From Candidatus Eiseniibacteriota bacterium (GTDB taxonomy: Bacteria > Eisenbacteria > RBG-16-71-46): 35,422 nucleotides of DNA. The notes under the pieces were generated by a model, which was not told the origin of the DNA, made no database searches, and worked only from the letters and a program-made list of their open reading frames with translations. A program made the position numbers and the translations under genes. Below are positions 2,867-33,695 of this stretch, piece after piece (position 1 is the stretch's first letter; each line of letters starts with the position of its first letter). Location of the stretch: assembly GCA_031366795.1 (NCBI GenBank), contig JANLOX010000447.1, positions 1 to 35,422 of the forward strand. The letters run 5' to 3'.

Positions 2867-2870
<4 letters not shown>
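2202..2870 (-). CDS. CdaR/YbbR-like domain membrane protein
   Basis: N-terminal ENVGLKLVALLLALVVYLHV anchor followed by two YbbR-like repeats (VTAELKG..., FIHVRGPRAVV); ATGA overlap with the upstream regulator. Confidence 0.8.
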
Positions 2871-4302
<1,432 letters not shown>

Positions 4303-4303
<1 letters not shown>

Positions 4304-5607
4304 CACTCCTTCACGCGTGGCAACCGCACCGTGCACGTCGTGCCGCATCCTTCACTGCTCTCGATCGCGAGCGTCCCACCCGCCGATTGCGCCAGGCGCC
4401 GCGCCAGGAACAACCCGAGACCCGAACCCTGGGGCTTGGTCGTCACGAAGGGTGTCGCGAGCCGCTGCAACAGTTCCCTGGGGATTCCTAAGCCCTCGTC
4501 CGCGATCTCGATTTCGATGAAACCCAAGGCGCTCCGGTCGGCAACCCGCACGCTGCCCCCCTCCGGCATCGCCTCGATCGCGTTGAGCAGCAGGTTCAAG
4601 TACACCTGCTTGAGCGACTCGGGATCGAGCCGGACAGTAGCCGAACCATCGCCCCCGCGCGAGCGTTCGAGCGTCACGCGGCGGGCGCGGAATTCTTCTT
4701 CGAGCAGCGCCAGCGTGGCCTCGAGTGCAGCCAACGCATCGCCATTTTCTCGCGGCGCCTGCTCGCCGCGCGCGAACTCGAGATAACGCGCGACGGTGCG
4801 CGAGAGGCGGTCGGATTCCTCGATGACGAACTGCGCCATCCGCTGCTGCTCGGCATCGCCGCGCTGCAGCCGCTCGGCGGAACCGCGAATGATGGCGAGC
4901 GGGTTCTTGATCTCGTGCGCCAACGTCGCCGTGAGTTGGCCCATCGCCGCGAGGTTCTCGGCGCGCGACAGGCGCCGCTCGAGCCGCGCAGCGGCGAAGG
5001 CGTTGCGCACCAGCAGTGCCGCGAACCCGGCGATGGCGGCGAGGCTCAGTAGCGCGATCAGCGAGAGACGGCGCGCCAGCGATTCGAGCGGGCCTAAGTA
5101 CGCGGGCTCGGCCTCGACGGCGATGACGGCGATGGCGCGGCCGCCCTCGAGCACCGGGGCGAGTGCTGCGCGCAGCGTGACTCCATTATGCACGTATGCC
5201 GGCGATATCATCGCTTGCCCGCGCAGGGCGAGCGCGAGCGTGGGGCCTGCGAGCGTGTCGAGCGCGCTGGGGAAGCGCTCCGAGTCCTCGGCGAGCCGGG
5301 CATCCACCAGGGTCATGCGCGTGGTGTCGATCAACGAAGCGTTGGCGAGCCCGGTCGCGCTGCTCAGCGTCACCAGTTGCACCTGCACCGCGAGGTAGCC
5401 GCTGCCGTCTTCGCCCAGCAGGCGCGCGTCCGCGACGGTCTCGGGCGAGATCTGCGAGGCCGCGGTGCGCGCGACGCGGCCCAGCCGCGCCTCGAACTCG
5501 CCGGCCATCGCGTCATGCACGCGGACCCACGCCAGCCAGCACGCCGTGACGGTGACGATGGCAGTGGCGGCGGCCAGCAGCAGCGTGGTGAGAATGGTTC
5601 GCCTCAG
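4303..5607 (-). CDS. Membrane sensor histidine kinase (probable CTG start at 5607)
   Basis: H-box LAHEIKNPL, N-box NLLLNAIEAM, G boxes DEGLG and GSGLGL. The first TM helix (TILTTLLLAAATAIVTVTACWLAW) lies upstream of the track start at 5520. GGAGG sits 6 nt before CTG. Confidence 0.9.
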
Positions 5608-9400: not shown

Positions 9401-11218
9401 GTAGGTCGAGTCGCCGGTCGTCGAGGAGACCACGCCGTTGCCCGGGGCGACGATGGTCGGTTTGGTGCGCCCATCGGCGCACGGGCCGCGGCTCGAGAAC
9501 CCGGCCAATGAAGTGGACGAGGCACCGTTGCCGCTGGCGCCGACGCTGACGATGTTCTTAGCACTTCCCGGCGAACCCACCGTGGTGGCGCTGGGGCCGG
9601 CGTTGCCATTGGAATAGAAGATCAGGAAGTCGGGGTGGTTCCACATGAACTGGTCCACCTGCTGCGATTCCATTGTGTACGCGCCGGCGACGTCGCTGCC
9701 CCACGAGTTCGAAGCGATGCGCGCGGCGCCACCCGCGTTCCCGGCGTAGCCGGGCTGGAACAGGTCGTTGAGATCGGGTGGCGTGAGCAGGCCGGTGCCG
9801 AGCGCCGGCCCCGACATGTCGGTGAACCACAGCTTGGCGTTCTTCGCCATGCCGTCATTCGTGCTGGTGCCGTAGGCGTCGTTGTTGCCCGCCGCGGTTC
9901 CGGCGGTGTGGCTGCCATGGAAGGCGCCGTGATCGCCGAATGCAATCGTCACGTCATTCGTCGAGCGACCGTAGGCCAGCAACTTGCGGTGCGTGGGGTA
10001 GCTGCCGAAGGTGTTGATCGGCACCAGCGGATCTTTAAAGGCGATGTGCTGCGTGTTCAGGCCGGAGTCGGTGGTCATCACCACCTGGCCCTCTCCCTTG
10101 ATCCCGAGGTCCCACAGGCGGCGGTTGTTGAGCACACCCGTCTGCACAATGCCCTGCGCGCTGGCGTTGTCCGTATGCGGCCCGACGAACGGCTCGATCC
10201 ACGCCACGTCGCTGTCGAGCGACAGCGCGTCCACGCCGGCGCGCGTCAATTCGAGGCGCATCACTTTGTTGATGCCATTGTCGGACGATGCGAGGACGGT
10301 CGCCCCCGCCGCGCGCGCCGCAACCAGAGCCACCGTGAGGTCGGCGTCCGGAAACAACAGCACGCTGACGGTTTGGCGTGCGGTGGATTCGGTGGCGATG
10401 CGATTGCTCAACTTGTACGCCGGCTGGTAGGCGCCCACCCACGCGCCGGGAAGAGCGAGCGTCAAGGCACCGGCTGCGTTCATGCGCACGAGGAAAGTGT
10501 GGTCAGGCAGGTAGCTCACGACCTGTCCGCCCGAGGCGAGAATCGACCGGCTGGTCTGCGAGGGATCGGCATCGTCGTAGTAGACGAGATAGCTCTGGCG
10601 CTCGAGCGCCGCGGCAGCCGGCAGGCGTTTGGAGGCGGGCAGGGCAGGCTCGCCCTGTGCGGGATCGATGTCGTAACCGGAAGCCAGGTGCACCATGCGA
10701 TGCGCCGAGGGCTCGGGCATGGCTCGACCGATCGTCGATACCGCTACCAGCGGGGACTGTTCCGACTGGTTCGAGAAGCGATGGATCACGAAGGCCGTGC
10801 GCACCGCGGACATGGTGGTACGGCCCGACTTGGGATCGCGGTCGGCGGCGGCCCACCACAGGCGCGTGTCGGAGGACAGGCTCTTGCCCAGATCTGACCA
10901 TGCCACGACCGGCGACTCCGCGCGCACGACCCGCACGACTCCGGAAGCCGGAACGCTCGTCCAGCCAGTGGGGTCGAAGGGCTGTTCGGAGACGAGGAGA
11001 AAGTGTTCGCTCGTGCCGGGTGCCGGCGTCCAGGCGAACGTCAGACCCGCTTCGCTCAGCGTCGCGTCGCCATTCGGGGCGATCAGTTCCGCGCGATTGG
11101 AATCCGGTAGCGGGCGCGCTTGGAGCAGCGCCGGGGTGAGCAGCAGCAGCGCGATGACGAACAACGCCCACGGCCGCCCTGCATGAACGGCCGGCGCCGG
11201 CTTGCGCACAAACACCAT
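6488..11218 (-). CDS. Large secreted S8 (subtilisin-family, KP-43-like) serine peptidase with Fn3/Ig modules and a FlgD/T9SS-like C-terminal domain
   Basis: Signal peptide; catalytic D (TTDSG), H (HGSHTAG) and S (GTSMA), oxyanion N (SNGN); LKISLVWTD beta domain; C-terminal PNP...YDVGGRRVRSL...WDLRDETG...GVYYYRL. AGGAGG SD before ATG 11218; 1576 aa. Confidence 0.93.
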   Translation of the reverse strand: MVFVRKPAPAVHAGRPWALFVIALLLLTPALLQARPLPDSNRAELIAPNGDATLSEAGLTFAWTPAPGTSEHFLLVSEQPFDPTGWTSVPASGVVRVVRAESPVVAWSDLGKSLSSDTRLWWAAADRDPKSGRTTMSAVRTAFVIHRFSNQSEQSPLVAVSTIGRAMPEPSAHRMVHLASGYDIDPAQGEPALPASKRLPAAAALERQSYLVYYDDADPSQTSRSILASGGQVVSYLPDHTFLVRMNAAGALTLALPGAWVGAYQPAYKLSNRIATESTARQTVSVLLFPDADLTVALVAARAAGATVLASSDNGINKVMRLELTRAGVDALSLDSDVAWIEPFVGPHTDNASAQGIVQTGVLNNRRLWDLGIKGEGQVVMTTDSGLNTQHIAFKDPLVPINTFGSYPTHRKLLAYGRSTNDVTIAFGDHGAFHGSHTAGTAAGNNDAYGTSTNDGMAKNAKLWFTDMSGPALGTGLLTPPDLNDLFQPGYAGNAGGAARIASNSWGSDVAGAYTMESQQVDQFMWNHPDFLIFYSNGNAGPSATTVGSPGSAKNIVSVGASGNGASSTSLAGFSSRGPCADGRTKPTIVAPGNGVVSSTTGDSTYASLSGTSMACPASAGCAALMRQYLTEGWYPTGTKVPANAFAPSAALLKAMVVGSGNNVMTGFNAPDVNIGWGRIDADSVLYFSGDTRRLLLIDQTLGIGNGQAIDYSINVTDASQPLKISLVWTDYPGSPLAAVQLVNNLDLTVSKGVTAFIGNAFTGGVSVAGGSADNRNVEECVRITSPATGVWTVHVNGTSIPAGPQAYALVITGGLGSTAGALALDQGSYGSGNIVHLRVTDTNASGPLNVNIASPTEPAGETVVLSGSNGIFNGSIGLSPQSGTVGDHILKVSNGDQITATYMDASPSATIVAKAMVGLEPPMITNVFAQGAGLGAAVVTWTTNVSANSTIYYGTTPALGQYTTLDLLAVLSHSEVITGLLSNQLYYFDVESMDLNGNVTRDDNGGVHYRFTPGVHADLLLVYDGNSYERASRYANALAATGWSYDLWSGNLSAAPQLGNNTNGMRSYRAVWWQNGIDHYPPFSDAARDSITAYLNGGGRLTVNGHDVAWANSDPSSPYYTAAADAWVQGTLHTQWLTDPSAWTDLTGIAADPISGAYAGGLSYTPYRSGAAGDEVASIPGSGTASYDWISGSPVPDNCGFRWESGSPLGSAAQGVWGGQTSRLATNYFEWAMIDNANEASALRNDILQKTLVWLIGRDKPTVAVTSPNGGEVVTSSSVNIAWTETVPGGVASRAIEYSLDGGASWTPITAAPGVSPYTWSLASVPNSSQALVRVRVTDAGTPNLSTTDPSDAVFTLNRAGADVAGPVVVAGSVHSVPNPIDVTQAATLSATVSDAKSGGAAVVAAEWSYGDSPAVAGQGAAMSGSFGTPTVAVSAALTTSNFALGNRRLWVRGRDALGNWGAAGFLQIVVNGTPPLGVAVQPLEYALGAGAPNPAATRSRIDYAMPVDGLVNLAVYDVGGRRVRSLVSGTQAAGVHATAWDLRDETGALVRAGVYYYRLEVAGRTFTRRLVALN

Positions 11219-11466
11219 GACTCCTCCTGAGCGGTGGATAGCAGGAAGCACTGGGAGTAGCGGACAGTGAGGATGGCATCGCGACGGCCGAACGGCCCCG
11301 TAAGGCAGGGAGTTCCGCCACGCCCGAGAGGGGGAAGCGTACCCGTTGAAGTATCTCAAACCTGCATGGCGACCGAAACCCAAAATCCCGGCTTGCCCCA
11401 CGGGCGGCCGGGACTCGGGCTACATCCAAAACATCACAACCCGGGCAATCGCCCCATTGCGGGCTA

Positions 11467-17629: not shown

Positions 17630-20600
17630 ATGCGCATACCCTCCATTGCCACACTCGCCCTGCTGACGTTGAGCCTCGCGGTGCCCGCCCGGGCTGAATA
17701 CACGCGTCTGTTGATCGCCCACACCACCGACCTCCATGGGTCGCTGACGGGCTGGGACTACCTTGCAGACCGCGCCGCACCGCGCGGTTTAGTGAAGATC
17801 GCCACCACGATCGACTCGCTGCGCGCCACGGGTGTACCGCTGCTGTTGCTCGATAACGGCGACACTATCGAGGGAGCGGGCATCGAGACGGTGCAGCATC
17901 TGAAGAGTGTCTTAGGCAGCGACCCGATGATCGGTGCGATGTCGAAGCTTGGCTACGACGCCATGTCGGTGGGCAACCACGAGTTCGATTTCGGCCGCGA
18001 GGTGCTGGAGCGCGCGCGCAAGCAGGCGAGCTTCCCCATGCTGGCCGCGAACATCGTGAACGCCCCCGATGGCACCGCCGCGTTCACGCCCTCGCTGGTC
18101 AAGGTCGTGGGCAGCGTGCGCATCGGCGTCGTGGGGCTGTGCACTCCCGCCGTGCCGCAGATGACGGATCCCGCCAACGTCGCGGGGCTGCGCTTCATCT
18201 CGCCCATCGAGGCGGCACAGCGCGAAGTGGCGCGGTTGCGCACGGTCGAGCATTGCGACGTGATCGTGCTGCTCGCGCACACCGGCATGGAGCGCGACAC
18301 CGTCGAGGTCGCCGCCACCATCGCCGTCAACGCGAGCTACAAGGCGCCCACGCCCGATGAAAACTGGGGCTACCGCCTGCTGACACAGGTGGCGGGCGTC
18401 GACGCCGTGATCCTCGGCCACACACACACCACGCTGGCACTGGTGCGCGGCGACGTCGCGTGCGGGCAGGCGGGCAAGAATGGCGAAGCGCTGGGCGTCA
18501 TCGATTTGAGCCTGAGCCGCGGCGCTCCCACCGAAGCGTGGCACGTGACGAATCGCAGCGTGAGCAACTCACCGACAACGATGCGACTGGCCGACCAGCC
18601 CGCGATGGCCGCGATGGCAGCACCCGTTCACGACGCCACCGAGCTGGCACTGGCGCAGACTATCGCGAACACCGCACATGCGTTGGCCTCGCCGTTCGGG
18701 CGCGCCGCGGACAGCCCGGTGTGGGACCTCGTGCATCGCGCGCAACTCGAGGCCTCGGGCGCCGACGTTTCGCTGGCGGCGCTGTACGACGCGGACGTGC
18801 GCATCGAGCCGGGCCCGATCACCTTGCGGCAAGTGCTACGCGTCTACCCGTTCGACAACACCCTGGTTTCCGTTCGCCTCACGGGTTCCCAGTTGCGTGA
18901 CGTGCTTGAGTACTCCGCGCGCCAGTTCGCGCCCTACGAGTTCAAGTTCAGCCGCTCCCTCTTCATGCCGGGTGCGGTCGGCTACAACTTCGACGCCGCG
19001 CGCGGTGTGACCTACGCGATCGACATCACGAAGCCCGCCGGCAGCCGTATCGTGAACCTGCGGCGTAACGGCCTGCCGCTCGCCGATGGGGATTCGCTGA
19101 CGGTGGTCACGAACAGCTATCGCGCCGGTGGCGGCGGCGGCTTCCCGTGGCTCGCGGCAGCACCCCGGGTCTGGAGCACCGCGCGCCGCGCGCATGAAGT
19201 GATCGCCGACTACCTGCGCAAGCACGCGCCGCTCGAGCAAAATTTCAAACCCGGCTGGCGGTTGTCGCCGAACTACGTCGCAACGCCCGAGCGCCCGCTG
19301 GTCGAACGACTCGTCAAGGCGGGCCTGCTCTCGCAGACGGAAGCCGCCTCACTGGATGCGACCACTCAGGCCACGCGCGGCGACATGGCATATTGGCTGT
19401 CACGCTCCTTCGGCTGGCGCTCCGCGAAGCTCACGCAGGCGTACGCGGGTGTCCCCGACTCGCTGGTGCCGTGGCTCGACGGGCTGCTCAAGCGCAAGGC
19501 GCTGGGCGCCACGATGACGTTCAAGACGCTACAGCCTTCGCAATCCCTGCAACTGCGCACCGCCCTCGACTGGAGCGAACGCACCGCTCGCAGCGCCGGC
19601 TACTCGCTGCGGCCGGTGTCGGACCCGGCGTACCGTGCGAGCCTGATGCAGCGCATCAAGCTCGCAGACGACGCCACGCTGACGCGCGCCGATATGCTGG
19701 GCATCATCGCGAACCTGCGCTACCCGGAACTGCGCATTCTGGAGACCACCGACTTCCACGGCTTCATCCTCGGCGGCAGCAAGGACCGCCGCAGCGGCCG
19801 CCAGCTCGGCGGCTCCGCCGTGCTCGCGGCGTGGATCTCCAAGCTGACCGCCGAGAACCCGACGGGAACGGTGCTGATCGATGGCGGCGATTGCTTCCAG
19901 GGCACGATGATCTCGAACCTCCAGTTCGGCCGCCCGATCGTCGAGCAGATGAATGCCATCGGCTACTCCGCCATGGCGATCGGCAACCACGAATTCGACT
20001 GGACCGCCGACACGCTCGCCGCGCGCATTCGCGGCATGAGGTTCGCAGCACTGGCCGCCAACATGGTCGAGCGCAAGACGCACAAGCTGCCCCGCTGGGC
20101 GCGACCCGACACCGTGGTCTCGCGCGCCGGTATCAAGGTCGGCATTCTCGGCATGGCCTATCGCAACACGCCCACCGTGACGCTGGCGAAGAACGTCGCG
20201 ATGTTGAGTTTCGAGGACGACTCGGCGACCGCAGCGCGCATCGTGCCCGAGCTCCAGAAACGCAGCGATATCGTGATCAGCATCGGCCACACGCCCGCCG
20301 AGACCGACTCGAACCGCGTCGCCAGGAGCGGCGACCTCGTGCGGCTCGCCAAGGGCGTCCCCGGCGTCTCCGCGTGGTTTGGCGGCCACAGCCATAACCA
20401 GATCGCCGATCGCGTCAATGGGGTACCCGTAATGATCGCCGGCGCGCACGGCGAAGTCGTCGCTGTGTGCGACCTGACGGTCGACCCGATCGCCAACCGC
20501 GTTATCGACTCGCGCTACGACCTGGTCAAGACGTGGGCCGATGAAGTCACCCCCGACTCCGCGATGGCCGTCCGCGTAACACGCTGGAACGCCACGGTCT

Positions 20601-21205
20601 CGGAACTCGCCGGCAGGAAGCTCGGCACGCTCGCGACGCCGCTCAAGCGCAACCGCGGCGGCGAGGGCCTGATCGGCGACATCGTCTCCGATGCGATGCG
20701 CGCAGGCTCCGGCGCCGATATCGCACTCGCCAACAGCGGGGGACTCCGCGCCGACATGGATCCCGGCGACATCACGCGCGGCTCGATCTACGAAGTGATG
20801 CCGTTCGACAACACCGTGTTCACGATGGGCCTGACCGCGCGCGAAGTACGCATGGCGCTCGAACAGGCGCTCAAGTTCGGCCGCGTCACACAGGTCAGCG
20901 GCATTCGCTACCGCTTCGATTCGAAGCGCCCCGCACTGGATCGCGTGCTCGAACTCACCGACGCCAAGGGCGCGCCGCTCGATTCGACGAAGACCTTCAA
21001 GGTCGCGGTCAACGACTTTATGGCCACCGGTGGCGACAACTACGACGTGCTTTCCGGCGGCAAGGACCGCCAGCCCACGAGCCTGCTGGTGCGCGAAGCA
21101 CTCGAGACCTACGTGAGCGGGTTGGGCGCGGAGGGACCGCTGTCGCTGACGCTGGATGGCCGCATCAAGCGCGAGGGCGGCGGGGATTCGGGCGGCGGGG
21201 AGTAG
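17630..21205 (+). CDS. Secreted tandem 2',3'-cyclic-nucleotide phosphodiesterase / 5'-nucleotidase (CpdB + UshA modules, YfkN-like)
   Basis: Two full metallophosphoesterase motif sets (TTDLHG/DNGD/GNHEFD/GHTH and TTDFHG/DGGD/GNHEFD/GHSH), each followed by a 5'-nucleotidase C-terminal domain (YPFDN, MPFDN); signal peptide. Confidence 0.93.
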   Translation: MRIPSIATLALLTLSLAVPARAEYTRLLIAHTTDLHGSLTGWDYLADRAAPRGLVKIATTIDSLRATGVPLLLLDNGDTIEGAGIETVQHLKSVLGSDPMIGAMSKLGYDAMSVGNHEFDFGREVLERARKQASFPMLAANIVNAPDGTAAFTPSLVKVVGSVRIGVVGLCTPAVPQMTDPANVAGLRFISPIEAAQREVARLRTVEHCDVIVLLAHTGMERDTVEVAATIAVNASYKAPTPDENWGYRLLTQVAGVDAVILGHTHTTLALVRGDVACGQAGKNGEALGVIDLSLSRGAPTEAWHVTNRSVSNSPTTMRLADQPAMAAMAAPVHDATELALAQTIANTAHALASPFGRAADSPVWDLVHRAQLEASGADVSLAALYDADVRIEPGPITLRQVLRVYPFDNTLVSVRLTGSQLRDVLEYSARQFAPYEFKFSRSLFMPGAVGYNFDAARGVTYAIDITKPAGSRIVNLRRNGLPLADGDSLTVVTNSYRAGGGGGFPWLAAAPRVWSTARRAHEVIADYLRKHAPLEQNFKPGWRLSPNYVATPERPLVERLVKAGLLSQTEAASLDATTQATRGDMAYWLSRSFGWRSAKLTQAYAGVPDSLVPWLDGLLKRKALGATMTFKTLQPSQSLQLRTALDWSERTARSAGYSLRPVSDPAYRASLMQRIKLADDATLTRADMLGIIANLRYPELRILETTDFHGFILGGSKDRRSGRQLGGSAVLAAWISKLTAENPTGTVLIDGGDCFQGTMISNLQFGRPIVEQMNAIGYSAMAIGNHEFDWTADTLAARIRGMRFAALAANMVERKTHKLPRWARPDTVVSRAGIKVGILGMAYRNTPTVTLAKNVAMLSFEDDSATAARIVPELQKRSDIVISIGHTPAETDSNRVARSGDLVRLAKGVPGVSAWFGGHSHNQIADRVNGVPVMIAGAHGEVVAVCDLTVDPIANRVIDSRYDLVKTWADEVTPDSAMAVRVTRWNATVSELAGRKLGTLATPLKRNRGGEGLIGDIVSDAMRAGSGADIALANSGGLRADMDPGDITRGSIYEVMPFDNTVFTMGLTAREVRMALEQALKFGRVTQVSGIRYRFDSKRPALDRVLELTDAKGAPLDSTKTFKVAVNDFMATGGDNYDVLSGGKDRQPTSLLVREALETYVSGLGAEGPLSLTLDGRIKREGGGDSGGGE

Positions 21206-24730: not shown

Positions 24731-25492
24731 ATGCCCGCCCCCACCGTGGTGTTCCTGTCCGACGTCCATCTAGGCATCGAGTCCCGCGAGCGCGAGGCGG
24801 CCCGGGAGGCGCGCCTGCTGAGCTTCCTGCGTTCCCTTCCCGGCAGGGCGAGCGATCTCTACATCGTGGGCGACCTGTTCGAGTTCTGGTTCGAGTACGT
24901 CACCGCGATCCCCCGCCGCTACTTCGGGCTGCTGCGAGCATTGGATGAGATTCGCGAGCAAGGGGTCCGCATCACCTGCCTGACCGGCAACCACGACTTC
25001 TACCTCGGGCGCTTTCTCCCGGACGAGCTCGGGATCCACACCGCCGAAGGGCCGCTCGCCGTGGAGCACCAGGGCCGGCGCATCTGGCTTCACCATGGCG
25101 ACGGGCTGATGCGCGGCGATCTCGGCTACAAGGTGCTGCGCCGCGTATTGCGAAGCCCATTGAGCATCGCCGCCTACCGCTGGGTGCATCCCGATGTGGG
25201 CATCCCGTTCGCTCACTGGGCCTCGCGCTGGTCGCGCCATTCGCGTGGGTACCGCCCGCTCGAAGGCGAGCGCATGTTCCAGGCGATCGCGGTACCCCGC
25301 TTCGCCGAGGGCTTCGATGCGGTAATGGTGGGTCACTTCCACCACGTGTTCGAACGCCGCGAGGGCGCCCGCGTGTTCTACGTGCTGGGCGATTGGTTCG
25401 ACAGCTTCAGCTACGTCGAGCTCGGCAACGGCGAGTTCACGCAGCAGAACTGGCCCGCTCCCCCGCTTGCAGCGGTCGCGACGCGCGCTTAG
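24731..25492 (+). CDS. lpxH: UDP-2,3-diacylglucosamine diphosphatase (LpxH-like)
   Basis: LSDVHLG, GDLFEFW, GNHDF, HGD, GHFH and LGDW motifs. Confidence 0.85.
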   Translation: MPAPTVVFLSDVHLGIESREREAAREARLLSFLRSLPGRASDLYIVGDLFEFWFEYVTAIPRRYFGLLRALDEIREQGVRITCLTGNHDFYLGRFLPDELGIHTAEGPLAVEHQGRRIWLHHGDGLMRGDLGYKVLRRVLRSPLSIAAYRWVHPDVGIPFAHWASRWSRHSRGYRPLEGERMFQAIAVPRFAEGFDAVMVGHFHHVFERREGARVFYVLGDWFDSFSYVELGNGEFTQQNWPAPPLAAVATRA

Positions 25493-26403
25493 AAATGCGC
25501 GTTGAAGCCGAAGCGATGGGTGTCGCCGAGATCATCCTTGAGCGGCACGAAGGCGTAGTCGAACGAGAACGCCTGCATGGCGTAGCCCGCGCCGAAGCTC
25601 ACCGACGTCGCGGTGTCATTGACGCGCAGCCCCATGCGCAGGGCCGCACCACTGGCGTCGCCGACTTCGGCGCCGAGCAAGCCCAAGCCGTTGCGACCGC
25701 GCACCGCGCGGCCCTCGAGGGCGCCCAGCACATGCAGTCGCGTGCCCACGGGGCGCTCGTAGGAGACACCGCTCTGGAACGCCGCGGGCAACTGGACCGG
25801 CAGCCCGTCGGTGCCCTCGATCGAATAGTGCGCCGCGGCGCCGACGTTCTGGCCGCCCGCCGCCACGCGCAGGCCCGGCAGCATCGCGGGCTCCCACGTG
25901 GCGCCGAGGCCGAACGAGTAGGTCTGCGCGGCGAGATTCGAGATGCGCTCGCGCACGATCGCCGCCGAGCCACCAAGGCTCACGCCCGAGCCCAGCGAGT
26001 GGCCGTAGCCCAGGCCCAATTCGAGGTCGTGCGAGCCGAAGCTGCCGACGAGATTGCCCACGTCGTCGCGTTCGTCGATCGGTTCGGAGTACAGCGCGCG
26101 AATCGAGGCCGCGATGCCGCCACCGAACATGTGACCGCCCACCGCGAAATAATCGTGGCGGAGCTTCTCGAACAATTCGGAATGCCCGCCGGCGATTTCG
26201 AGACTCTTGGTGGTGGTCAGGCGCGAGGGATTCCAGTAGGCAGACTCGACGCCCCTGGTGAGCGACGAGTAGGCGCCACCCAGGGCAGCGGCGCGCGCGC
26301 CCGTCGGCACTTCGAGGAAGGCGAATCCCGGGGGAGCCGCGTACGCCACGGCGGCACAGCCCAACACGCACACCGCGAGTCCCAAGCTCAACTTCAATCG
26401 CAT
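25489..26403 (-). CDS. PorV/PorQ (UPF0164) family outer-membrane beta-barrel
   Basis: Signal peptide, FLEVPTGARAAALGGAY...YWNPS, C-terminal FDYAF...LGDTHRFGFNAHF ending in Phe. Confidence 0.85.
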   Translation of the reverse strand: MRLKLSLGLAVCVLGCAAVAYAAPPGFAFLEVPTGARAAALGGAYSSLTRGVESAYWNPSRLTTTKSLEIAGGHSELFEKLRHDYFAVGGHMFGGGIAASIRALYSEPIDERDDVGNLVGSFGSHDLELGLGYGHSLGSGVSLGGSAAIVRERISNLAAQTYSFGLGATWEPAMLPGLRVAAGGQNVGAAAHYSIEGTDGLPVQLPAAFQSGVSYERPVGTRLHVLGALEGRAVRGRNGLGLLGAEVGDASGAALRMGLRVNDTATSVSFGAGYAMQAFSFDYAFVPLKDDLGDTHRFGFNAHF

Positions 26404-26526
26404 GCGGATCTCCGAAGCAGACGCAAAGCGGGCCGCGTGATTCGCGGCCCGCCTCGAAGGGACAAGACCAGAAAACAGACTATCGGGCTCGACGGTGCTT
26501 CTCAACTCGACGCTGCTCGATGGGGC

Positions 26527-28062
26527 TTACGGATTCCAGTTGCCGCTGCCTTTGTGCCTGGGCCGGTCCGTCGACTCGGGTGGCGGTGATTGTTGCTGCG
26601 AATCGTCAGAACGCGGCTGCTCCGCCTCACGGTCCGGGCGTTGCGCGCCACGGTCAGGATTGCGCGGGGCCGGAGCCTCCTGCTTTGGCTGCGGCTGCGG
26701 CCTCGGCGTCCAGCGGCCCGGATCGGGGGCAGGCTGCTGCTGGCGTGTTTCGCGGCCGCCGCCACTGGGCGGCGCGGATCCGTTGTCGTTGCCGGGATTG
26801 TTGCCACTCCTGCCGGAGCCATTGTTGCCCTGGTCCCAGCCACCACGGCGGCTGCGTCCCGACTCGGGCGCAGGCGCCGGAGTGGGCGTCGCCGACGAAC
26901 CGCCGCCTGAACCGCCACGCGTACGCCATTCGCGTGCCCCACCACCGCTGCCGTCCGAGGGCGCGCCACCGACGCGTTCGCGGCGAATGCCGCTCGGCTG
27001 GCCACCGCCCGGCTGGCTCGTGCGATTCCAACGGTCGTGCGCGCTGGCGAAGTATCCCGGCGGCAACGTCGAGCCACCGCCATCACTATTGCCCGCGCCA
27101 CGTCCGGCCGTGCGTCCGCGCCAATCGGCAGGCGCCACATAGCCGGCCGGAGGGGGAGTCTTATAGCGGCGCAGCGGGCCTCCCCAGGTCGTGGTCCAGC
27201 GCTTCCAGCCATCCCACGATGAATACCAGACGCCCCCGCGCGAACCCTGCGGCCGGTAACGCGGCGGGCAATCCGTGCGGTAGACGTAGGCGTAATAGGG
27301 CACGTAGCCCGACCAGTACGTCGGCCCCCACCACCAGTTCGAGTTCACGCGGAACTCGAAGGCGCTGCAGTTCGCGTAATACGGGTCGAAGCCATCCCAC
27401 CACGAGTAGTAGCCCGGGCGGTGGCAGTCATTGCACAAGTAGCGTGGGTAGCGCACTTCGTTGTGCACGTAATACGAGGTGTAGGCCGTCGCGAAGGTGT
27501 GCGAGTTCACGCCTTCGGCGAGCACTGCGCGGCGGATGCGTTCCATGGCGACGAACGGGTCCCCGACGATCTTGCCGTCTGACGTCACGCCCTCGCTCTC
27601 GCGCTCGTCACTCGAAGTGTAGCCGAGCTCCTGGGCGCGCGGATCGGGCGGGCGCAGGTACCACGGCAGCTGGCGGAACGGTTCGTCGGAAGCGATCGCC
27701 ACGATGAAGCCCTCGCCCACCGGGCCCTCGACCACCATTTGCTCATCGTTGCTCTCGGGCAGCTGGAGTGCCGTGCCGCCATCGATGCTGGTGTCGTTGC
27801 CCTCGGTGGGAAACAACACGTGCACCGACCCCTCAGCGTCGATCTCGTAGACGATGAGGTTGGCGTCGCGGTTGGTCTTGACGCTCAGGCTGATGGCGTC
27901 GCCCGGCTGGTAAACGGCGCCGTCGCCGCGGTTGGAGCGGATCTTGACGTTGAGCGTCTGGGCGCCCGCCGTCACCGCCGTGGTCGCGACACAGGTCGCG
28001 AGCACCAGCAGGAACAGCGCGAGCCCTGCCCCCTGCCGGTTCAGCTTCTGGATGCGTGACAT
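26527..28062 (-). CDS. Exported DUF4384-domain protein with CxxCH motif, Trp/Tyr-rich segment and disordered Gly/Arg/Pro tail
   Basis: AAGGAG SD, signal peptide, YQPGDAI...YEIDAEGSVHVLFP...GPVGEGFIVAIAS (DUF4384-like), LCNDCH at 27421-27435. Confidence 0.75.
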   Translation of the reverse strand: MSRIQKLNRQGAGLALFLLVLATCVATTAVTAGAQTLNVKIRSNRGDGAVYQPGDAISLSVKTNRDANLIVYEIDAEGSVHVLFPTEGNDTSIDGGTALQLPESNDEQMVVEGPVGEGFIVAIASDEPFRQLPWYLRPPDPRAQELGYTSSDERESEGVTSDGKIVGDPFVAMERIRRAVLAEGVNSHTFATAYTSYYVHNEVRYPRYLCNDCHRPGYYSWWDGFDPYYANCSAFEFRVNSNWWWGPTYWSGYVPYYAYVYRTDCPPRYRPQGSRGGVWYSSWDGWKRWTTTWGGPLRRYKTPPPAGYVAPADWRGRTAGRGAGNSDGGGSTLPPGYFASAHDRWNRTSQPGGGQPSGIRRERVGGAPSDGSGGGAREWRTRGGSGGGSSATPTPAPAPESGRSRRGGWDQGNNGSGRSGNNPGNDNGSAPPSGGGRETRQQQPAPDPGRWTPRPQPQPKQEAPAPRNPDRGAQRPDREAEQPRSDDSQQQSPPPESTDRPRHKGSGNWNP

Positions 28063-28191
28063 GGTGTGAGGCTCCTTGGGGCCGGGGACCCGCCTTTCCG
28101 GCGGGGCGCTCCGGTGTCCGCTGCGTGATGGTCTACCCCGCATGGGGTAATCGTGCTCCCGTAACCCTGCTCGATCAAGCGCCCCCGCCTA

Positions 28192-29022
28192 CTAAAGCGC
28201 TCGCAAGGCGTCCCACACGGCGGGCCGGCGTACCCTGTTGGATGCGGGATTCAGCTCAGGGCGGGCCTTCAATTCGCGATTACCCGCCGCCACCTGGTAG
28301 GCCCAGTCCATCACCACGTGGCCGCTGGTGAGCGAACTCACCCGGAACTTCGCGTAGTGGTTGTCCTGGGTCCACACCACGTAGCAGTGGCCCGTGATCA
28401 GCTCGACCGTGCCGCTGGGCGACCAGCCGGCCACAGGGGCGAAATCGACGGCATCGAGCGTTGCACCGTAACCGGCGTCCTGGATCTCGGTGTCGGCGAA
28501 CGGCGCGATCATCAGATTCTGGCCCCCGGCGGCGCCGTAAAACACGTCGACCTGGCTGTTGCGGTAGGGCAGCACCGAATACGTCGAGAAGTCATAGCCC
28601 GCATGCAGCGAGTCGAACGCCGCGTTGCCCAGCGTCAGCCCGAAGCCTTCGGGACGCGGCGTGTCGTAGATCGTGTCGTAGGACAGGTCGCTCTCGTGAC
28701 CGTCGCGGTCGATGGCGGCGACCGCGTAGTACTCGGTCTGGCCGTTGGTGAGACCGGTGACCACGTACGAAGTGGTGGAGGTCGAGCCGATCGGAGTGTA
28801 GGAGCAACTCGCATCCGGGCACGGGCCGGTGTAAACGCGGTAGGCCACGACGTTCTTCTCGGTATTCTTGAGCCAGCTCAGGTACACCGCGTGATCGCCC
28901 GTGACCGTCTGCAGGCCGCGGGGTGCAGCGGGAAGGACCAGCGCGCGTGGCGCCACGACCGTGCCGTCGTTGCAACCGGCGAGCAGCAACACACCGAGCA
29001 TCAAAGCAAGAACCTTGCGCAT
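28192..29022 (-). CDS. Lipoprotein with fibronectin type III domain and HmuY-like C-terminal region
   Basis: AGGAGG SD, lipobox LLLAG-C, Fn3 (PAAPRGL...LSW...YRVY...GLTNGQTEYYAVAA), C-terminal YVVWTQDNHYAKFRV. Confidence 0.8.
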   Translation of the reverse strand: MRKVLALMLGVLLLAGCNDGTVVAPRALVLPAAPRGLQTVTGDHAVYLSWLKNTEKNVVAYRVYTGPCPDASCSYTPIGSTSTTSYVVTGLTNGQTEYYAVAAIDRDGHESDLSYDTIYDTPRPEGFGLTLGNAAFDSLHAGYDFSTYSVLPYRNSQVDVFYGAAGGQNLMIAPFADTEIQDAGYGATLDAVDFAPVAGWSPSGTVELITGHCYVVWTQDNHYAKFRVSSLTSGHVVMDWAYQVAAGNRELKARPELNPASNRVRRPAVWDALRAL

Positions 29023-29078: not shown

Positions 29079-29095
29079 CGCAACGCGCATGCCAG
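29079..29095 (-). promoter_or_regulatory. Sigma-54 (-24/-12) promoter for the lipoprotein-DUF4384-PorV operon
   Basis: Minus strand CTGGCATGCGCGTTGCG matches TGGCAC-N5-TTGC with exact GG-N10-GC spacing, ~57 nt upstream of ATG 29022. Confidence 0.8.
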
Positions 29096-29309
29096 TGAGG
29101 GCGCGCGGTTAGCCAGGGTGGGATTCGCGAAATTCAGGCTGTTTTCACCGTATTCACAGGCAATTGCGGTAGTTCCGTGGTGGCGGGGCGTGCGGCGGCG
29201 ATACAACTGTGCCGATCTTGCCGCACCTGAGGGGACGCTGGAGCGTTCGGGGGCTCGCTCTGGCGTGCGTTCGCGCGGGCTCGCGCGGATCGCTCACTCG
29301 CCAGCGGGC

Positions 29310-29397
29310 AAGAAAAAGGACACCGGCCGTGAAGCGAATCCGCATTTCAGCCGAGACATCCCCCAATGCTGGCCAATCTGCGAAGCGACCGGTGCCC
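29310..29397 (-). terminator. Terminal stem and U-tract of the putative ncRNA
   Basis: GGGCACCGGUCG (29386-29397) pairs with CGGCCGGUGUCC (29318-29329) over 12 bp, followed by UUUUUCUU (29310-29317). Confidence 0.6.
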
Positions 29398-29508
29398 TGC
29401 AACCTGGGATTGCCCGCAACACGGCCCGACGGGAGGCAGACACCACCGGGCCTGCCAATGAACACGTCGACACTTGTGTACGTGCAAACCCCAGGAACTC
29501 GTCACTGA

Positions 29509-29586
29509 GTACTTGGGAAATCGTTTGGGTTACGAACTCTGCTGACTGCTGCGTGCCTGGGAAATCGTTCGGGTTGCGATCTCTGC
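29509..29586. repeat. Two 34-bp imperfect direct repeats (29/34 identical, 10-bp spacer)
   Basis: gtacttgggaaatcgtttgggttacgaactctgc (29509-29542) and gtgcctgggaaatcgttcgggttgcgatctctgc (29553-29586). Confidence 0.92.
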
Positions 29587-29767
29587 CTTTGCTAACTTCA
29601 AGATCTGGTTTTGAAGCTCCAAGCTAGCCGGTCGTAGAACGTGGCGCTGTCGTTAGACTGGGGCTCGTACCCTGGCCAAACTCTACGGAACCGGCTAGCC
29701 CAGATGCCTGTCCGGCTTGCCTCACCGGACCGTTTTGGAGGTCCCCCCCCTCCGGCTGATATGTAAG

Positions 29768-29784
29768 AGCATCCCGCGTGCCAG
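29768..29784 (-). promoter_or_regulatory. Sigma-54 (-24/-12) promoter with no downstream protein gene
   Basis: Minus strand CTGGCACGCGGGATGCT: perfect TGGCACG, GG-N10-GC spacing; predicted TSS ~29757. Confidence 0.75.
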
Positions 29785-30101
29785 CGTCCGGGATTGGTCA
29801 GGCATTTATTTGTATCCGTCACAGTTGCAATACGTTATCGGAAACAATGAGTTCAATCGACGGGGGCCAAGCTGGGCCCAGAGGTGACAGAAACCATTAA
29901 GAAGATGATTAGATTTTGGATCGATCCCGTAAGCCGCTGCAATCGCGTGGCATAGCTGGTAATAAAATTTACAGCAACACATGAAACATATTTTATAGCA
30001 GGCGCGTTACATTCCGAGTCAACGCCGGACATGGCGAGGCCACGTTTGGGGACCCGGAAACGCTGCGTCGTGGCGGGGCGAACCCGCCGAAGGAACGCCA
30101 G

Positions 30102-33100
30102 CTACTCGGCGATCGCCGACTTTTCGATCCGCAGGGAGCGGATGCGGCCCAGCAGCGTGGGATAGCTCATCCCCAGCTCGCGGGCAGTGCGCGCACGGTT
30201 CCAGTGATTGCGCTCGAGGGCCTGCGCGATCATGCGCCGCTCGAGTTCGGAGACGTTGCTGCGCAGCGTGAGGCCATTACCCGCGGCCGTCGAACCATTG
30301 CCGTTACCGTTGCCATTCCCACTGCCATGGCCATTGCTGTGGCCATTGCCGTAACCGTGGCCATTGCCGTGACCCTCCGCGCGCGCATTAATGCTGTCGG
30401 TCATGTCGGGCGGCAGCAGTTCGGGGCCCAGTACTCCCCCCTCATCCGCCAGCACCACGAGACGCTTCACGGTCTTCTCGAGCTCGCGCACATTGCCGCG
30501 CCATTCGTGCTCCAGGAAGATGCGCATCACCGACGGCGCGATACCGTGCACACGCTTTTCCATCTGGCGCGAGTACACGTCGAGGAAGTGCTGGCACAGC
30601 AGCGGAATGTCTTCACGCCGTTCGCGCAGTGACGGCACGCGCACGGTGATGTCGTTCAATCGGTAGTAGAGATCCTCGAGGAAGCGGCCGTCCTTGATGC
30701 GTTCGCGCAGGTCCACGCCCGTGGCACAGATGACGCGCGCATCGACGCGATGGCTGCGCGTGGCGCCGACAGGGCGGATCTCGCCGCGGTCGAGCACATG
30801 CAGCAGCTTGGCCTGCACGGTCTCGGGCACCTTCTCGATTTCATCGAGGAAGATCGTGCCGCCGGCGGCCTCTTCGAACAGCCCCGTCTTGTCGCGCACC
30901 GCACCGGTGAAGGCGCCATGCACGTAGCCGAACAGTTCGCTCTCGAGCAGGTGCTCGGGCAGCGCAGCGCAATTGACCTGCACGAACGGGCGGTCGCGGC
31001 GATTGGAGATCTCGTGCACGGCCTGGGCGAGCAGGCCCTTGCCCGTACCGGTCTCACCCATGAACAGGATCGTCGCCGGGCTATCGCCCACCTTCTGGAG
31101 CAGCAGGGAAATATTCTGCATCTCGCGCGACTGCGTGATGATGCGATTGAGGCCCGGGCTGGGCTTGAGCTTGTCGCGCAGTTCCTTGTTCTCGGCGAGC
31201 AGCAAGGATCGCTGCGCCTCGACGATGGCGACCGCGGCGCTGTTTGCCAGCACGGCGAGCAGGTTCAACTCGCGCTGGCGGAAGGCGCCGAGCAGGCTGT
31301 CGTTCAGGCGATCGACGTAGACGAGCCCCACCGACTGTGAGGGGAAGTTGAGCGGCACGCACACCAGCGAGCCGACACCTTCGAGCGCATCGACGACGGC
31401 GCCGCTGAAGCGCGGGTCGGCCGTCACGCGGCTCGCGAATACCGGACCGCTCTCGGCGATCTTCTGCCCCGCCGCCTGTTCGATGACGCGCAGGATCTTG
31501 CGGGCGCGGTCGCGGCCGAGCCCGTGTTGGGCAACGACATCGAGCCGGCCACTGCCGTTGCTGAAGGCGACGAAGCCGCGATCTCCCCCCGAGTGTTCGA
31601 CCGCGAGCCGCACCGTCTGGCTCAGCAGGCCTTCCATGTCGGCGGTCTCGCGGAACAAGCGGTTCGCCTCTTCGAGCGCGCGGAATTCATTGCAGGTCGA
31701 CAGCGACACCGCGACGTACTGGCGCTCGAGTTCGCGGCGCAGCGCTTCGGCGCGTTCTTCGGTCGCGGGATCTCCCGCTTCAGAGAGCCACCGCTCCGCC
31801 TGCTCGAGCAGCGTCAGGGCCTGGTCAAAGTGTTCGCGTTCGGATTCGAGGCGGGCGAGTGTCAGCAACGCTTCCGCGGCCGGCGGCATAACGCCGAGCT
31901 GGCGGAACAACGTCGCGGCACGCTTGGCGGCCTCGGCCACGGGCTCGAGATCGACGCGCAACCGCGCGCTCGAGGGCAGTAGGAGGAGGCACTCCGCCCA
32001 AGCCGCGAGCGTGGCGCCGAGTTCATAGGTTTCGCACAGCGCTTCGAACACATGCGCGGAGCCGCGGATGCGCATCTCGACCGAGGCGGCGTTGCCGCGC
32101 AGTGCGTCGAGTCGCGCCAGCGCGCGCTCGGCGAACGCCTGCTCGATGCGATCGCCCAGCTTCTCGGAGATCATCGAGCCCGCGAGCAGCTTCTGCTGCG
32201 CGGCGTCGAGCTTCCCCGCGAGCAGGTAGGCGAGTCCCAATCGCGTCTGGAGTTCGGCGGCCATGTCGCCCTCGGGCGCCAACGCCATCGCCTCTTCGAG
32301 CGCCGGTTCGAGCAGCGAGATCGCTCCCGCCACATCGCCGCGGTCGAGCGCCAACTCACCGAGGAACTCGCGCGCCAGCAGCGCCTCGCGCGTGGCCCCC
32401 GCCTGCAGCGCCAACTGGTGGCCGCGGCGGTAGTGTTCGTCGGCGCGTTCGAGTTGGCGCCGCCTGCGGCAGAGCATGCCGAGCGCCAGCAAGCTGCTCG
32501 CTTCGCCCTGAACGTGGCCCGTTTCGCGGGCGATCTTCAGCGACTGGCGGAAGTTTTCCTCGGCGAGATCCCACTGGCCCAGGCGGTAGCGAATGAGCCC
32601 CAGGTTCTGGAGTCCCGGGCGCATGCGGGCATACAGCCCCGCGCGCTCGTCCAGACGCAACGCCTGCTCGAGGAAGCGTGTCGCCTCGCGCCACTCGCGC
32701 AGGTTCTTGTAGACTAACCCCAGGTTATTGAGGGCATTCACCAGCCCATCGACGTCATCGATCCGGCGGAACGTGGCGGCGGCGGACTGCAGCCAGTCGA
32801 TAGCTTCCTGCGACTTGCCGCGCCGCGCGCAACAGAACCCCAGCGTCACGCTCAGCTGCGCCACCGTGCGGTGATCGTCGGTGTCGCGGAGCACCTGGTA
32901 CGCCCAGCCCGCATAGCGCATCGAGGCGTGATAGCGGCCGAGCTCTATATAGGTGTTGGCGAGCCGCGCGGCGATGCCGGCGTTCAGGCGACGGTCGTCG
33001 AGGCGCCGCGCCAACTGGCGCGCGTCGCGCAGCACGCCGATGGCGGCGTCGAAGCGGCTGCGGGCGAATTCGGCTTCGGCGATCTTGCGCAGCACCCGCA

Positions 33101-33278
33101 CCCTGTCCAACACCGCCTCGTCACCGAGGCGCTGCAGGGCCAACAGGTACTGCTCCACCGCGCCGCCGAAGTGATCGGCTGCGAAGTGAAGGTCACCAAT
33201 CGACTCGCAATGCTCTGCAGCACCCTGTGAAGGGACAGAGCGATCACGAGCTTGATCGGGGGGGATCAATCGCTGCAC
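30102..33278 (-). CDS. TPR-GAF-AAA+ sigma-54 enhancer-binding protein with Fis-type HTH
   Basis: About 500 aa of TPR-like helical repeats (e.g. ALNNLGLVY, LQNLGLIRYRLGQWDLAEENF), GAF (SLVCVPL...GLVYVD), GETGTGK, GAFTGA, FLDEIE, WRGNVRELE, HTH (NRARTARELGMSYPTL). Start probably GTG 33278; the track extends it to TTG 33368. Confidence 0.92.
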   Translation of the reverse strand: MQRLIPPDQARDRSVPSQGAAEHCESIGDLHFAADHFGGAVEQYLLALQRLGDEAVLDRVRVLRKIAEAEFARSRFDAAIGVLRDARQLARRLDDRRLNAGIAARLANTYIELGRYHASMRYAGWAYQVLRDTDDHRTVAQLSVTLGFCCARRGKSQEAIDWLQSAAATFRRIDDVDGLVNALNNLGLVYKNLREWREATRFLEQALRLDERAGLYARMRPGLQNLGLIRYRLGQWDLAEENFRQSLKIARETGHVQGEASSLLALGMLCRRRRQLERADEHYRRGHQLALQAGATREALLAREFLGELALDRGDVAGAISLLEPALEEAMALAPEGDMAAELQTRLGLAYLLAGKLDAAQQKLLAGSMISEKLGDRIEQAFAERALARLDALRGNAASVEMRIRGSAHVFEALCETYELGATLAAWAECLLLLPSSARLRVDLEPVAEAAKRAATLFRQLGVMPPAAEALLTLARLESEREHFDQALTLLEQAERWLSEAGDPATEERAEALRRELERQYVAVSLSTCNEFRALEEANRLFRETADMEGLLSQTVRLAVEHSGGDRGFVAFSNGSGRLDVVAQHGLGRDRARKILRVIEQAAGQKIAESGPVFASRVTADPRFSGAVVDALEGVGSLVCVPLNFPSQSVGLVYVDRLNDSLLGAFRQRELNLLAVLANSAAVAIVEAQRSLLLAENKELRDKLKPSPGLNRIITQSREMQNISLLLQKVGDSPATILFMGETGTGKGLLAQAVHEISNRRDRPFVQVNCAALPEHLLESELFGYVHGAFTGAVRDKTGLFEEAAGGTIFLDEIEKVPETVQAKLLHVLDRGEIRPVGATRSHRVDARVICATGVDLRERIKDGRFLEDLYYRLNDITVRVPSLRERREDIPLLCQHFLDVYSRQMEKRVHGIAPSVMRIFLEHEWRGNVRELEKTVKRLVVLADEGGVLGPELLPPDMTDSINARAEGHGNGHGYGNGHSNGHGSGNGNGNGNGSTAAGNGLTLRSNVSELERRMIAQALERNHWNRARTARELGMSYPTLLGRIRSLRIEKSAIAE

Positions 33279-33374
33279 GGGGGTACCCTTTCCCCCGCGC
33301 ACCGGGGTAGTCCGCGACGCCGCTACGAGACGGTCGCCGAGAACCCCGAAGCGCGGGGTCGGGAACAAATCTAG

Positions 33375-33695
33375 TTAGAAGCCAATTCCGATCGCTCGCT
33401 TCACCCAGATGAGGCTCGTCCAGCCGACCACGCGAATCGCGCGAATCGAGAACTGGGCTGCGCCAGCAGAGTTGGGTTGAGCGGTCGGGCTCGTCGCCCG
33501 CGGACGGGTGCTCCCAGCATCCGGCTCACCGGTATTGGGATCGTGGTTGACGGGAGGCGGCACGTACGGCGGCGAAACCGGCTCCGAGGCAAAGCCTCGA
33601 GCAGCCGCATTCGACACGCCGGGGCCTCCCATAACCGCTGTCCCAACAGCGACCGTCAGCAGGATGCTCAGGAGCGATCTGCGAAGTTGCTGCAT
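33375..33695 (-). CDS. Small (106 aa) exported Pro-rich protein, possible signalling-peptide precursor
   Basis: AGGAG SD, ATG 33695; signal peptide MQQLRRSLLSILLTVAVGTAVMGGPGVSNAAA; Pro-rich core with NTGEPDAG; hydrophobic/basic C-terminus. Confidence 0.7.
   Translation of the reverse strand: MQQLRRSLLSILLTVAVGTAVMGGPGVSNAAARGFASEPVSPPYVPPPVNHDPNTGEPDAGSTRPRATSPTAQPNSAGAAQFSIRAIRVVGWTSLIWVKRAIGIGF

Follow-up and report, generated by a model that had tools for sequence, protein, structure and literature searches.

In the 35,422-nucleotide (nt) stretch of Candidatus Eiseniibacteriota DNA analysed here (contig JANLOX010000447.1 of assembly GCA_031366795.1; hereafter the window), positions 29,310 to 33,695 carry a four-part regulatory cassette, which consists of the gene for a small protein with a predicted signal peptide (mini-protein), the gene for a sigma-54 activator with a tetratricopeptide repeat (TPR) region, a sigma-54 promoter and a structured RNA (RNA1). 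The anatomy of the cassette, its conservation, the complementarities of its RNAs and a codon bias at the start of the activator gene are matters of observation. In the reading to which we give a little more credence than doubt, the activator fires the RNA, the RNA damps the activator messenger RNA (mRNA) and pairs with its counterpart from a sister cassette, and a short acidic peptide from the mini-protein serves as input. The cassette combines known kinds of logic with new parts. Its elements are:

33695-33375, minus strand: open reading frame (ORF) of the 106-amino-acid (aa) mini-protein, with a basic N-terminus, a hydrophobic stretch and GEPD; a Sec signal peptide (about residues 1-30) is predicted, followed by a G/S/P/T-rich linker, the GEPD core and a C-terminal amphipathic Trp/Arg helix
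33519-33530, minus strand: GEPD core, the candidate ligand
33278-30102, minus strand: ORF of the 1058-aa activator, TPR-GAF-AAA+(GAFTGA)-helix-turn-helix (HTH)
33258-33264, minus strand: C-run in activator codons 5-7, the likely target of the G-rich loops of RNA1
31644-33221, minus strand: TPR superhelix, the sensor region, with about 13 helix pairs and about 520 aa
29998-29980 and 29974-29956, minus strand: two enhancer-like palindromes, candidate activator binding sites
320 nt between the activator gene and promoter 1: AT-rich spacer
29768-29783, minus strand: sigma-54 (-24/-12) promoter 1, with GG-N10-GC spacing, preceding the RNA in relatives
29310-29756, minus strand: RNA1, about 450 nt, without a conserved ORF, its ends placed by promoter spacing and the U-tract

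An earlier note, made from the letters of the window alone, had described four co-oriented adjacent elements, and these do lie together on the minus strand. Its activator of about 1058 aa with TPR, GAF, AAA+(GAFTGA) and HTH parts is borne out by domain matches, its AT-rich spacer by a GC content of 52% in bin 29501-30000 (62-72% in every other 500-nt bin), and its sigma-54 promoter with a non-coding product by the correct promoter spacing and by the conserved structured RNA behind it. For the exported protein of 106 aa, the ORF, its position and a predicted signal peptide agree with that description, while export itself is presumed from these sequence features.

An orthologue of the activator was found in 59 of 61 genomes, and a profile of the TPR region matched 205 of the 206 genomes of the phylum, mostly with two to five matches each. 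Through a single locus (L148) the TPR family was followed into a second phylum, probably Krumholzibacteriota (one member of a related cluster is so named), where it occurs in 118 of 121 sampled genomes. When the neighbourhoods were compared, homologous activators across the two phyla were seen to keep both the mini-protein and the promoter with its structured RNA. The earlier suggestion that peptide sensing by TPRs is joined to a sigma-54 RNA output is thus partly supported: it stands as far as the conserved neighbours and the RNA are concerned, and by size and taxon the system falls outside the published RRNPP definition.

A short ORF with a G[DE]PD-type core precedes the activator gene in 97 of 105 loci examined; the eight misses comprise one duplicate paralogue locus, four loci at a contig end or split, one split activator gene, one mini-protein that is present but was overlooked by the script, and one locus (L032) where none was found. 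Among the 97 detected mini-proteins, the core reads G[ED]PD in 89 (GDPD in 62, GEPD in 27, another variant in 8), a hydrophobic N-terminal stretch is present in 95 (by sequence pattern, not SignalP), and the tail contains Trp in 89, reaches the hydrophobicity of a membrane span in five, and is mostly amphipathic (moment 0.5 or more in 71 of 97) and basic. The 38 aa around the core show a mean column identity of 18%, so that the core lies amid hypervariable flanks. Within family f1, to which the window belongs, the two cassettes of one cell have cores of their own, GEPD-x-G (E in 27 and G in 22 of 33) and GDPD-x-P (D in 33 and P in 32 of 33). All 37 loci of the second phylum have a signal-peptide ORF 109-225 nt upstream of the activator gene; 34 of the cores fit the search pattern (mostly GDAD, GDPD and GDGD), and the other three are GDTD or GDDD. 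Four extra paralogues without a promoter or RNA behind them have all kept the mini-protein, which links it with the TPR protein and not with the RNA. No Pfam or NCBIfam family matched the mini-protein, and its look-alikes in the Atlas are unnamed clusters with Eiseniibacteriota as the commonest taxon. At the second-phylum loci L258, L261, L263, L270-L274, L276-L282 and L284-L285, an aromatic amphipathic helix precedes the GDAD core, which speaks for a module that can change its place and against a sorting signal of the C-terminus.

The activator is composed of the TPR region, a GAF domain (residues 547-685), a Sigma54_activat domain with GAFTGA (713-879; PF00158, E 3e-64) and an HTH_8 domain (1010-1045; PF02954), and thus has the AAA+ domain with GAFTGA and the C-terminal HTH of an enhancer-binding protein; no equivalog cut-off of NCBIfam was reached. 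An AlphaFold2 model of the TPR region (pLDDT, the predicted local distance difference test, 94) found its best fold matches in the LGN/Pins-peptide and TONSOKU-histone complexes, both binders of extended peptides, and no RRNPP receptor was among the fold matches listed. Rap proteins matched the TPR region at the level of generic TPRs (E ~1e-11), below eukaryotic TPRs. A homologue search and a search through 1.8 billion entries returned members of the family and generic TPRs, with no characterised protein among the matches, and one candidate member (L149, Dokdonella) was rejected as an unrelated kinase-TPR protein. Near-invariant positions of the aligned TPR region include N165, N166, N206, K172 and six Arg. 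According to the part of PMC3763537 considered, the contacts of NprR with its internal heptapeptide are made by Asn residues and by an Arg-Asp pair, the active form of NprX being SKPDIVG, and the likeness of the TPR region to these contacts may serve as a lead. Peptide sensing by the TPR region has indirect support: the fixed adjacency of the two genes, the signal peptide, the conserved acidic core amid hypervariable flanks, the cassette-specific cores and the peptide-groove TPR fold with conserved Asn and Arg all point to it. We regard it as rather likely that the mini-protein supplies the ligand, and, if it does, a re-imported peptide as probable, rather than the cytoplasmic precursor. The AAA+ lid is joined to the HTH domain by a low-complexity linker rich in His, Gly and Asn (window 30280-30400), which most relatives have in a shorter form.

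Promoter 1 and a second sigma-54 promoter further downstream are two of only 14 matches to the strict sigma-54 pattern in the 4.18-Mb genome, which contains rpoN; for the second promoter, the strict pattern recurs 700-1010 nt 3' of the activator gene in 26 of 30 loci. In 30 of 33 genomes a de novo search recovered the palindrome motif at a distance of 189-193 nt upstream of promoter 1, and the sister cassette has a palindrome of its own at a fixed distance. The palindromes are likely, to judge from their placement, to be binding sites of the activator; a -24/-12 promoter, an upstream palindrome and rpoN are the sequence features expected around an enhancer-binding protein, and it appears highly probable that the activator fires promoter 1. 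A loose pattern, run with no control, placed sites resembling those of integration host factor (IHF) in 15 of 33 and in 15 of 35 spacers, and no such sites are claimed.

Starting about 12 nt after promoter 1, RNA1 runs through a hairpin, a branched domain 1, a variable middle and the long hairpin of domain 2 to a U-tract:

29737-29753, minus strand: 5' hairpin with a G-rich loop, a pattern found in relatives
29617-29704, minus strand: domain 1, a branched stem (alignment A3)
29660-29674, minus strand: small hairpin complementary to RNA2, 15 nt in the genome of the window
29505-29586, no strand assigned: two 38-nt repeats in the variable middle, lineage-specific and not shared outside the genus
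29318-29397, minus strand: domain 2, a long hairpin followed by the U-tract, with an invariant G-rich apical loop (29364-29360)

Set against 100 shuffled versions, the sequence behind promoter 1 gave a better fold than every one of them (z -2.49). Pairs changed on both sides number 6 of 26 in domain 1 (alignment A3, 37 sequences) and 16 of 24 in domain 2 (alignment A4, 41 sequences); many stem pairs never vary and are uninformative for covariation. The pattern of the 5' hairpin was found in 56 of 59 further genomes, a few of these matches being off-target, and at the class level RNA1 shrinks or diverges. No conserved same-strand ORF of at least 40 aa lies behind promoter 1, and a coding reading of the region was rejected. 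Rfam returned no match for RNA1 (one chance match lay far below threshold), and none at seven further loci, RNA2 of the sister cassette included. Metatranscriptome contigs from three studies cover 29304-29501, the 3' part of RNA1, with one to three other letters, and the pieces that fall on the activator are short and divergent, a weak hint that RNA1 is expressed. Shares in the RNA runs were 0.04-0.27. Two loci depart from the usual layout: at L039 (G056) what follows promoter 1 and the 5' hairpin is a protein-coding gene in place of the full RNA, and at L029 (G029) the RNA1 transcript has taken up, between domains 1 and 2, a short ORF for a secreted Cys-rich product that has a ribosome site of its own, which lengthens the transcript to about 960 nt, in a genome that also lacks the RNA2 pairing site.

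The sister cassette lies on another contig of the same genome (C48) and comprises a GDPD mini-protein, a TPR activator without a GAF domain, a promoter with the same 16-nt core as promoter 1 and a different RNA (RNA2) with a terminator; it was matched in 44 of 61 genomes, and one genome (G014) holds two complete copies (L072, L102) with similar RNAs. RNA2 contains the reverse complement of the small RNA1 hairpin at 29674-29660. A perfect match of 11-17 nt between the two RNAs at this one site is present in 60 of 67 f1 genomes (26 genera, both RNAs), with 12 or more nt in 58, compared with a mean longest complement of 8.1-9.4 nt in dinucleotide shuffles for 35 genomes. Genomes G010 and G033 have one extra base in both RNAs, a compensatory insertion, and in G015, where RNA1 has the extra base, 12 pairs persist, two G-U among them. 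In family f3 the RNA2 site is absent and the RNA1 loop varies freely (0/7), a second event, of the loss type. In each of 12 genomes the RNA1 site forms a small hairpin when folded, and one run (X1) contains a 167-nt contig identical to RNA2 across the pairing site together with a near-identical piece of RNA1. From these complementarities, pairing of RNA1 with RNA2 in f1 seems reasonably probable.

The second candidate partner of RNA1 is the mRNA of its own activator. Proline codons 6-7 are written as CCC in 69 of 74 cases (37 loci), as against 358 of 1075 (33%) at the other proline codons of these genes. At seven of 11 loci of the second phylum, where the RNA is unrelated in sequence, its first loop complements codons 3-6 of its own activator perfectly over 9-10 nt, and one more locus of the 11 pairs with early activator codons through another loop; the weight of this parallel lies in the recurrence of the same two places with other letters, not in the length of the match. 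RNA2 has an invariant 3' seed that complements its own activator's ribosome site in 22 of 33 f1 leaders, over up to 12 nt. Matches of 6-11 nt between the middle motif of RNA1 and the activator leader are inconsistent, and pairing is not claimed for them. In a genome scan for complements of seven RNA motifs near start codons, with crude gene calls, both activators were recovered and the rest was not distinguishable from chance. Taken together, codon bias and parallel make it likely that RNA1 represses the activator mRNA. Both this feedback and the complementarity to the RNA of the sister cassette go beyond the earlier note. A 7-nt C-rich motif occurs twice in RNA2 (3' domain, L031:575-610) and once or twice in RNA1 (middle, domain 1) across families f1-f3; it is invariant in f3, where the leader match is gone, which suggests another target or protein binding. 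In many f1 genomes the 100-nt leader of activator A (L004-L030) contains a hairpin whose loop complements the ribosome-site spacer and may form a pseudoknot with it; this ribosome site resembles the pairing hairpin of RNA1 and is nearly complementary to the RNA2 site (by eye), and the window's own activator leader differs from these leaders.

The mechanism that we favour would start with export of the mini-protein by way of its signal peptide. Its G[ED]PD core would then be released, re-imported by a peptide ATP-binding cassette (ABC) importer and bound in the cytoplasmic TPR groove; the host genome encodes four family-5 ABC binding proteins. The activator, bound to the palindrome about 190 nt upstream, would fire promoter 1, as the fixed spacing and the general biology of enhancer proteins suggest, and the G-rich loops of RNA1 would pair with codons 5-7 of the activator mRNA, a negative feedback. 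In the family of the window, RNA1 and RNA2 would pair through their complementary hairpins, each channel would thereby titrate the other, and it is the ratio of the two that the cell would read. A bolder form is a peptide-signalling family of bacteria with two membranes, near-universal in the two phyla, in which every exported mini-protein supplies a G[DE]xD peptide to its own activator, every large RNA silences the activator that made it, and the RNAs of the two channels annihilate each other through kissing hairpins without Hfq, the cell thus computing a ratio of two peptide signals; this we put forward tentatively and with more doubt than belief.

Several observations weigh against the favoured mechanism. 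An invariant core is unlike kin-specific quorum peptides, and a host with two membranes, as its outer-membrane genes suggest, complicates a route of re-import. The gene hfq (PF17209) was not found in the 96%-complete host genome, and the metatranscriptome contigs give neither strand nor level of RNA1. Locus G002 was left out of the CCC count and lacks the codon pattern. For the complements of the second phylum, shuffles gave means of 7.3-8.3 nt and maxima of 9-12 nt; the seven loci are kin sharing one sequence, and three of the 11 show nothing comparable. The RNA2 3' seed matches the ribosome site at none of seven f3 loci. Single shuffles of the RNA pair reached 13 and 15 nt. Since G010, G033 and G015 form one clade (support 1.0), their extra bases count as one co-insertion event. 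The RNA2 site is weakened in seven of 67 f1 genomes and the RNA1 loop is unchanged in six of these, which places the loop under another constraint, and by eye the RNA2 site could also pair with the 5' end of RNA2 or with the ribosome site of activator A. Minimum-energy co-folding, which cannot model loop-loop contacts, returned the site duplex in two of 12 genomes.

In a different account of the input, the TPR region captures the mini-protein while this is still in the cytoplasm, ahead of export, and the activator reports export or envelope capacity, the RNA layer being unchanged. The logic is that of FlgM or ExsE. A core that stays the same across two phyla suits a constant internal signal more than one that marks kin, no re-import is needed, the downstream operon encodes a lipoprotein and a PorV-family protein, and co-transcription across an intergenic gap of about 100 nt would bring both partners together. 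We nevertheless hold this account unlikely: two cassettes of one cell keep different cores, which would be needless for a general export sensor, some proteins of the second phylum have the amphipathic helix in front of the core and no longer behind it, and Sec precursors are normally short-lived. Less probable still is a mini-protein that acts outside the cell on another partner, as a membrane anchor, protease substrate or sorting signal, while the activator responds to a small molecule at its GAF domain or to a protein at its TPR region and the adjacency reflects co-regulation alone. The GAF domain and the amphipathic, basic tail of most mini-proteins would suit such a role, but the paralogue without GAF keeps its mini-protein, as do all four solo paralogues and all 37 second-phylum loci while other neighbours change.

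For the RNA layer, the rival is a protein sponge of the CsrB/RsmZ type, in which loops ending in GGA titrate CsrA and the mRNA and RNA-RNA matches are secondary. The genome contains csrA, both invariant loops of RNA1 end in GGA, and hfq was not found. CsrB-type RNAs, though, carry many GGA loops, compared with two such loops per RNA here, and codon bias, second-phylum parallel and co-insertion all favour base pairing, so that we consider a sponge improbable. Also against a sponge, in the part of PMC13443453 considered a low share of Eisenbacteria CsrA is predicted functional in a flagellin assay, with which other RNA binding is still compatible.

Sigma-54 activators with a neighbouring or dependent small RNA (sRNA) are known from CbrB-CrcZ and GlrR-GlmY, where GlmY is a decoy; these activators have receiver domains, their RNAs titrate proteins, and there is no mini-protein. 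RNA1 matched none of the Rfam families of Qrr, Pxr, CrcZ, GlmY and CsrB. The nearest published wiring appears to be LuxO-Qrr with the QrrX sponge and PxrR-Pxr, here joined to an RRNPP-like input. In Vibrio cholerae, as the part of PMC9732341 used here describes it, the activator-driven sRNAs Qrr1-4 reduce translation of the activator LuxO and QrrX, the sRNA of a second regulator, pairs with the first; that circuit has a phosphorelay input, the LysR-type QrrT and Hfq-dependent RNAs, whereas here both RNAs lie behind paralogous sigma-54 activators with mini-proteins of their own, measure 300-500 nt and contain several stems. Of the QrrX-type sponge, the present pair has the extended sRNA-sRNA complementarity, but for Hfq dependence no hfq was found in the 96%-complete genome. 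In Myxococcus xanthus the NtrC-like activator PxrR of the PxrK/PxrR-Pxr system is encoded immediately before an sRNA gene for which a sigma-54 promoter and an enhancer region are predicted; it has a two-component input, and in the portion of the source used pxrR is not a predicted Pxr target (PMC5684412).

On the input side, the RRNPP criteria in the part of PMC10075063 considered are a Sec-secreted propeptide of 10-100 aa (validated ones have 21-50 aa), a receptor of 250-500 aa with TPRs, and genes that are direct neighbours. The TPRs and the adjacency (97/105 loci; 37/37 in the second phylum) agree, the mini-protein of 106 aa exceeds the propeptide range narrowly and the activator of 1058 aa the receptor range clearly, and the host belongs to Ca. 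Eisenbacteria, not Firmicutes; of the five published criteria two fit and two do not. NprR-NprX (PMC10075063, PMC3763537; both in part) is alike in the small precursor, here presumably secreted, beside a cytoplasmic TPR protein, the internal core bearing Pro-Asp and the conserved TPR Asn and Arg, and differs in that the receptor here has 1058 aa with GAF, AAA+ and HTH for sigma-54, and the precursor, outside the Firmicutes, about 100-125 aa with an amphipathic helix and an invariant core.

No description of the cassette was found in the open-access literature, supplements excluded. If peptide import and mutual RNA titration hold, this would be a new kind of system. Intracellular sensing of re-imported peptides has been described for Firmicutes, and a sigma-54 version in bacteria with two membranes would, if true, widen the range of users and raise the question of how the peptide re-enters. 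Two uncultured phyla, for whose regulation the search turned up no publication, have in this cassette a regulator that is nearly universal. With it come at least three structured RNA families absent from the catalogues and a pair of natural sRNAs whose hairpins match, one compensatory variant of the pair being already at hand; all steps can be reconstructed in a laboratory strain that has RpoN.

The second sigma-54 promoter, which the earlier note had placed before an envelope operon, was found at 29094-29079. It and the other genes around the cassette are:

29079-29094, minus strand: sigma-54 promoter 2, with GG-N10-GC spacing, before the envelope operon
25489-29022, minus strand: envelope operon of three genes after promoter 2
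29022-28192, minus strand: operon gene 1, lipoprotein-like
28062-26527, minus strand: operon gene 2, DUF4384 protein
26505-25489, minus strand: operon gene 3, PorV/PorQ-family outer-membrane protein
In the window with the cassette, minus strand: ArsR-type gene and ppx/gppA

A similar lipoprotein gene follows promoter 2 in both phyla. A de novo motif search before promoter 2 picked up the RNA itself and not an enhancer. Between RNA1 and promoter 2 (window 29130-29230), many relatives have tandem TGT-N-ACA-type sites, which by eye are unlike the first enhancer, so that promoter 2 may answer to another activator. Elsewhere in the window, a 1637-aa subtilase with a C-terminal FlgD-Ig domain (6488-11401), together with the PorV-family gene (25489-26505), points to a type IX-like export system. 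The window further contains a second sigma-54 activator, of the receiver type, with a histidine kinase (2867-5520), and a 5'-nucleotidase gene in tandem duplicate (17630-21205).

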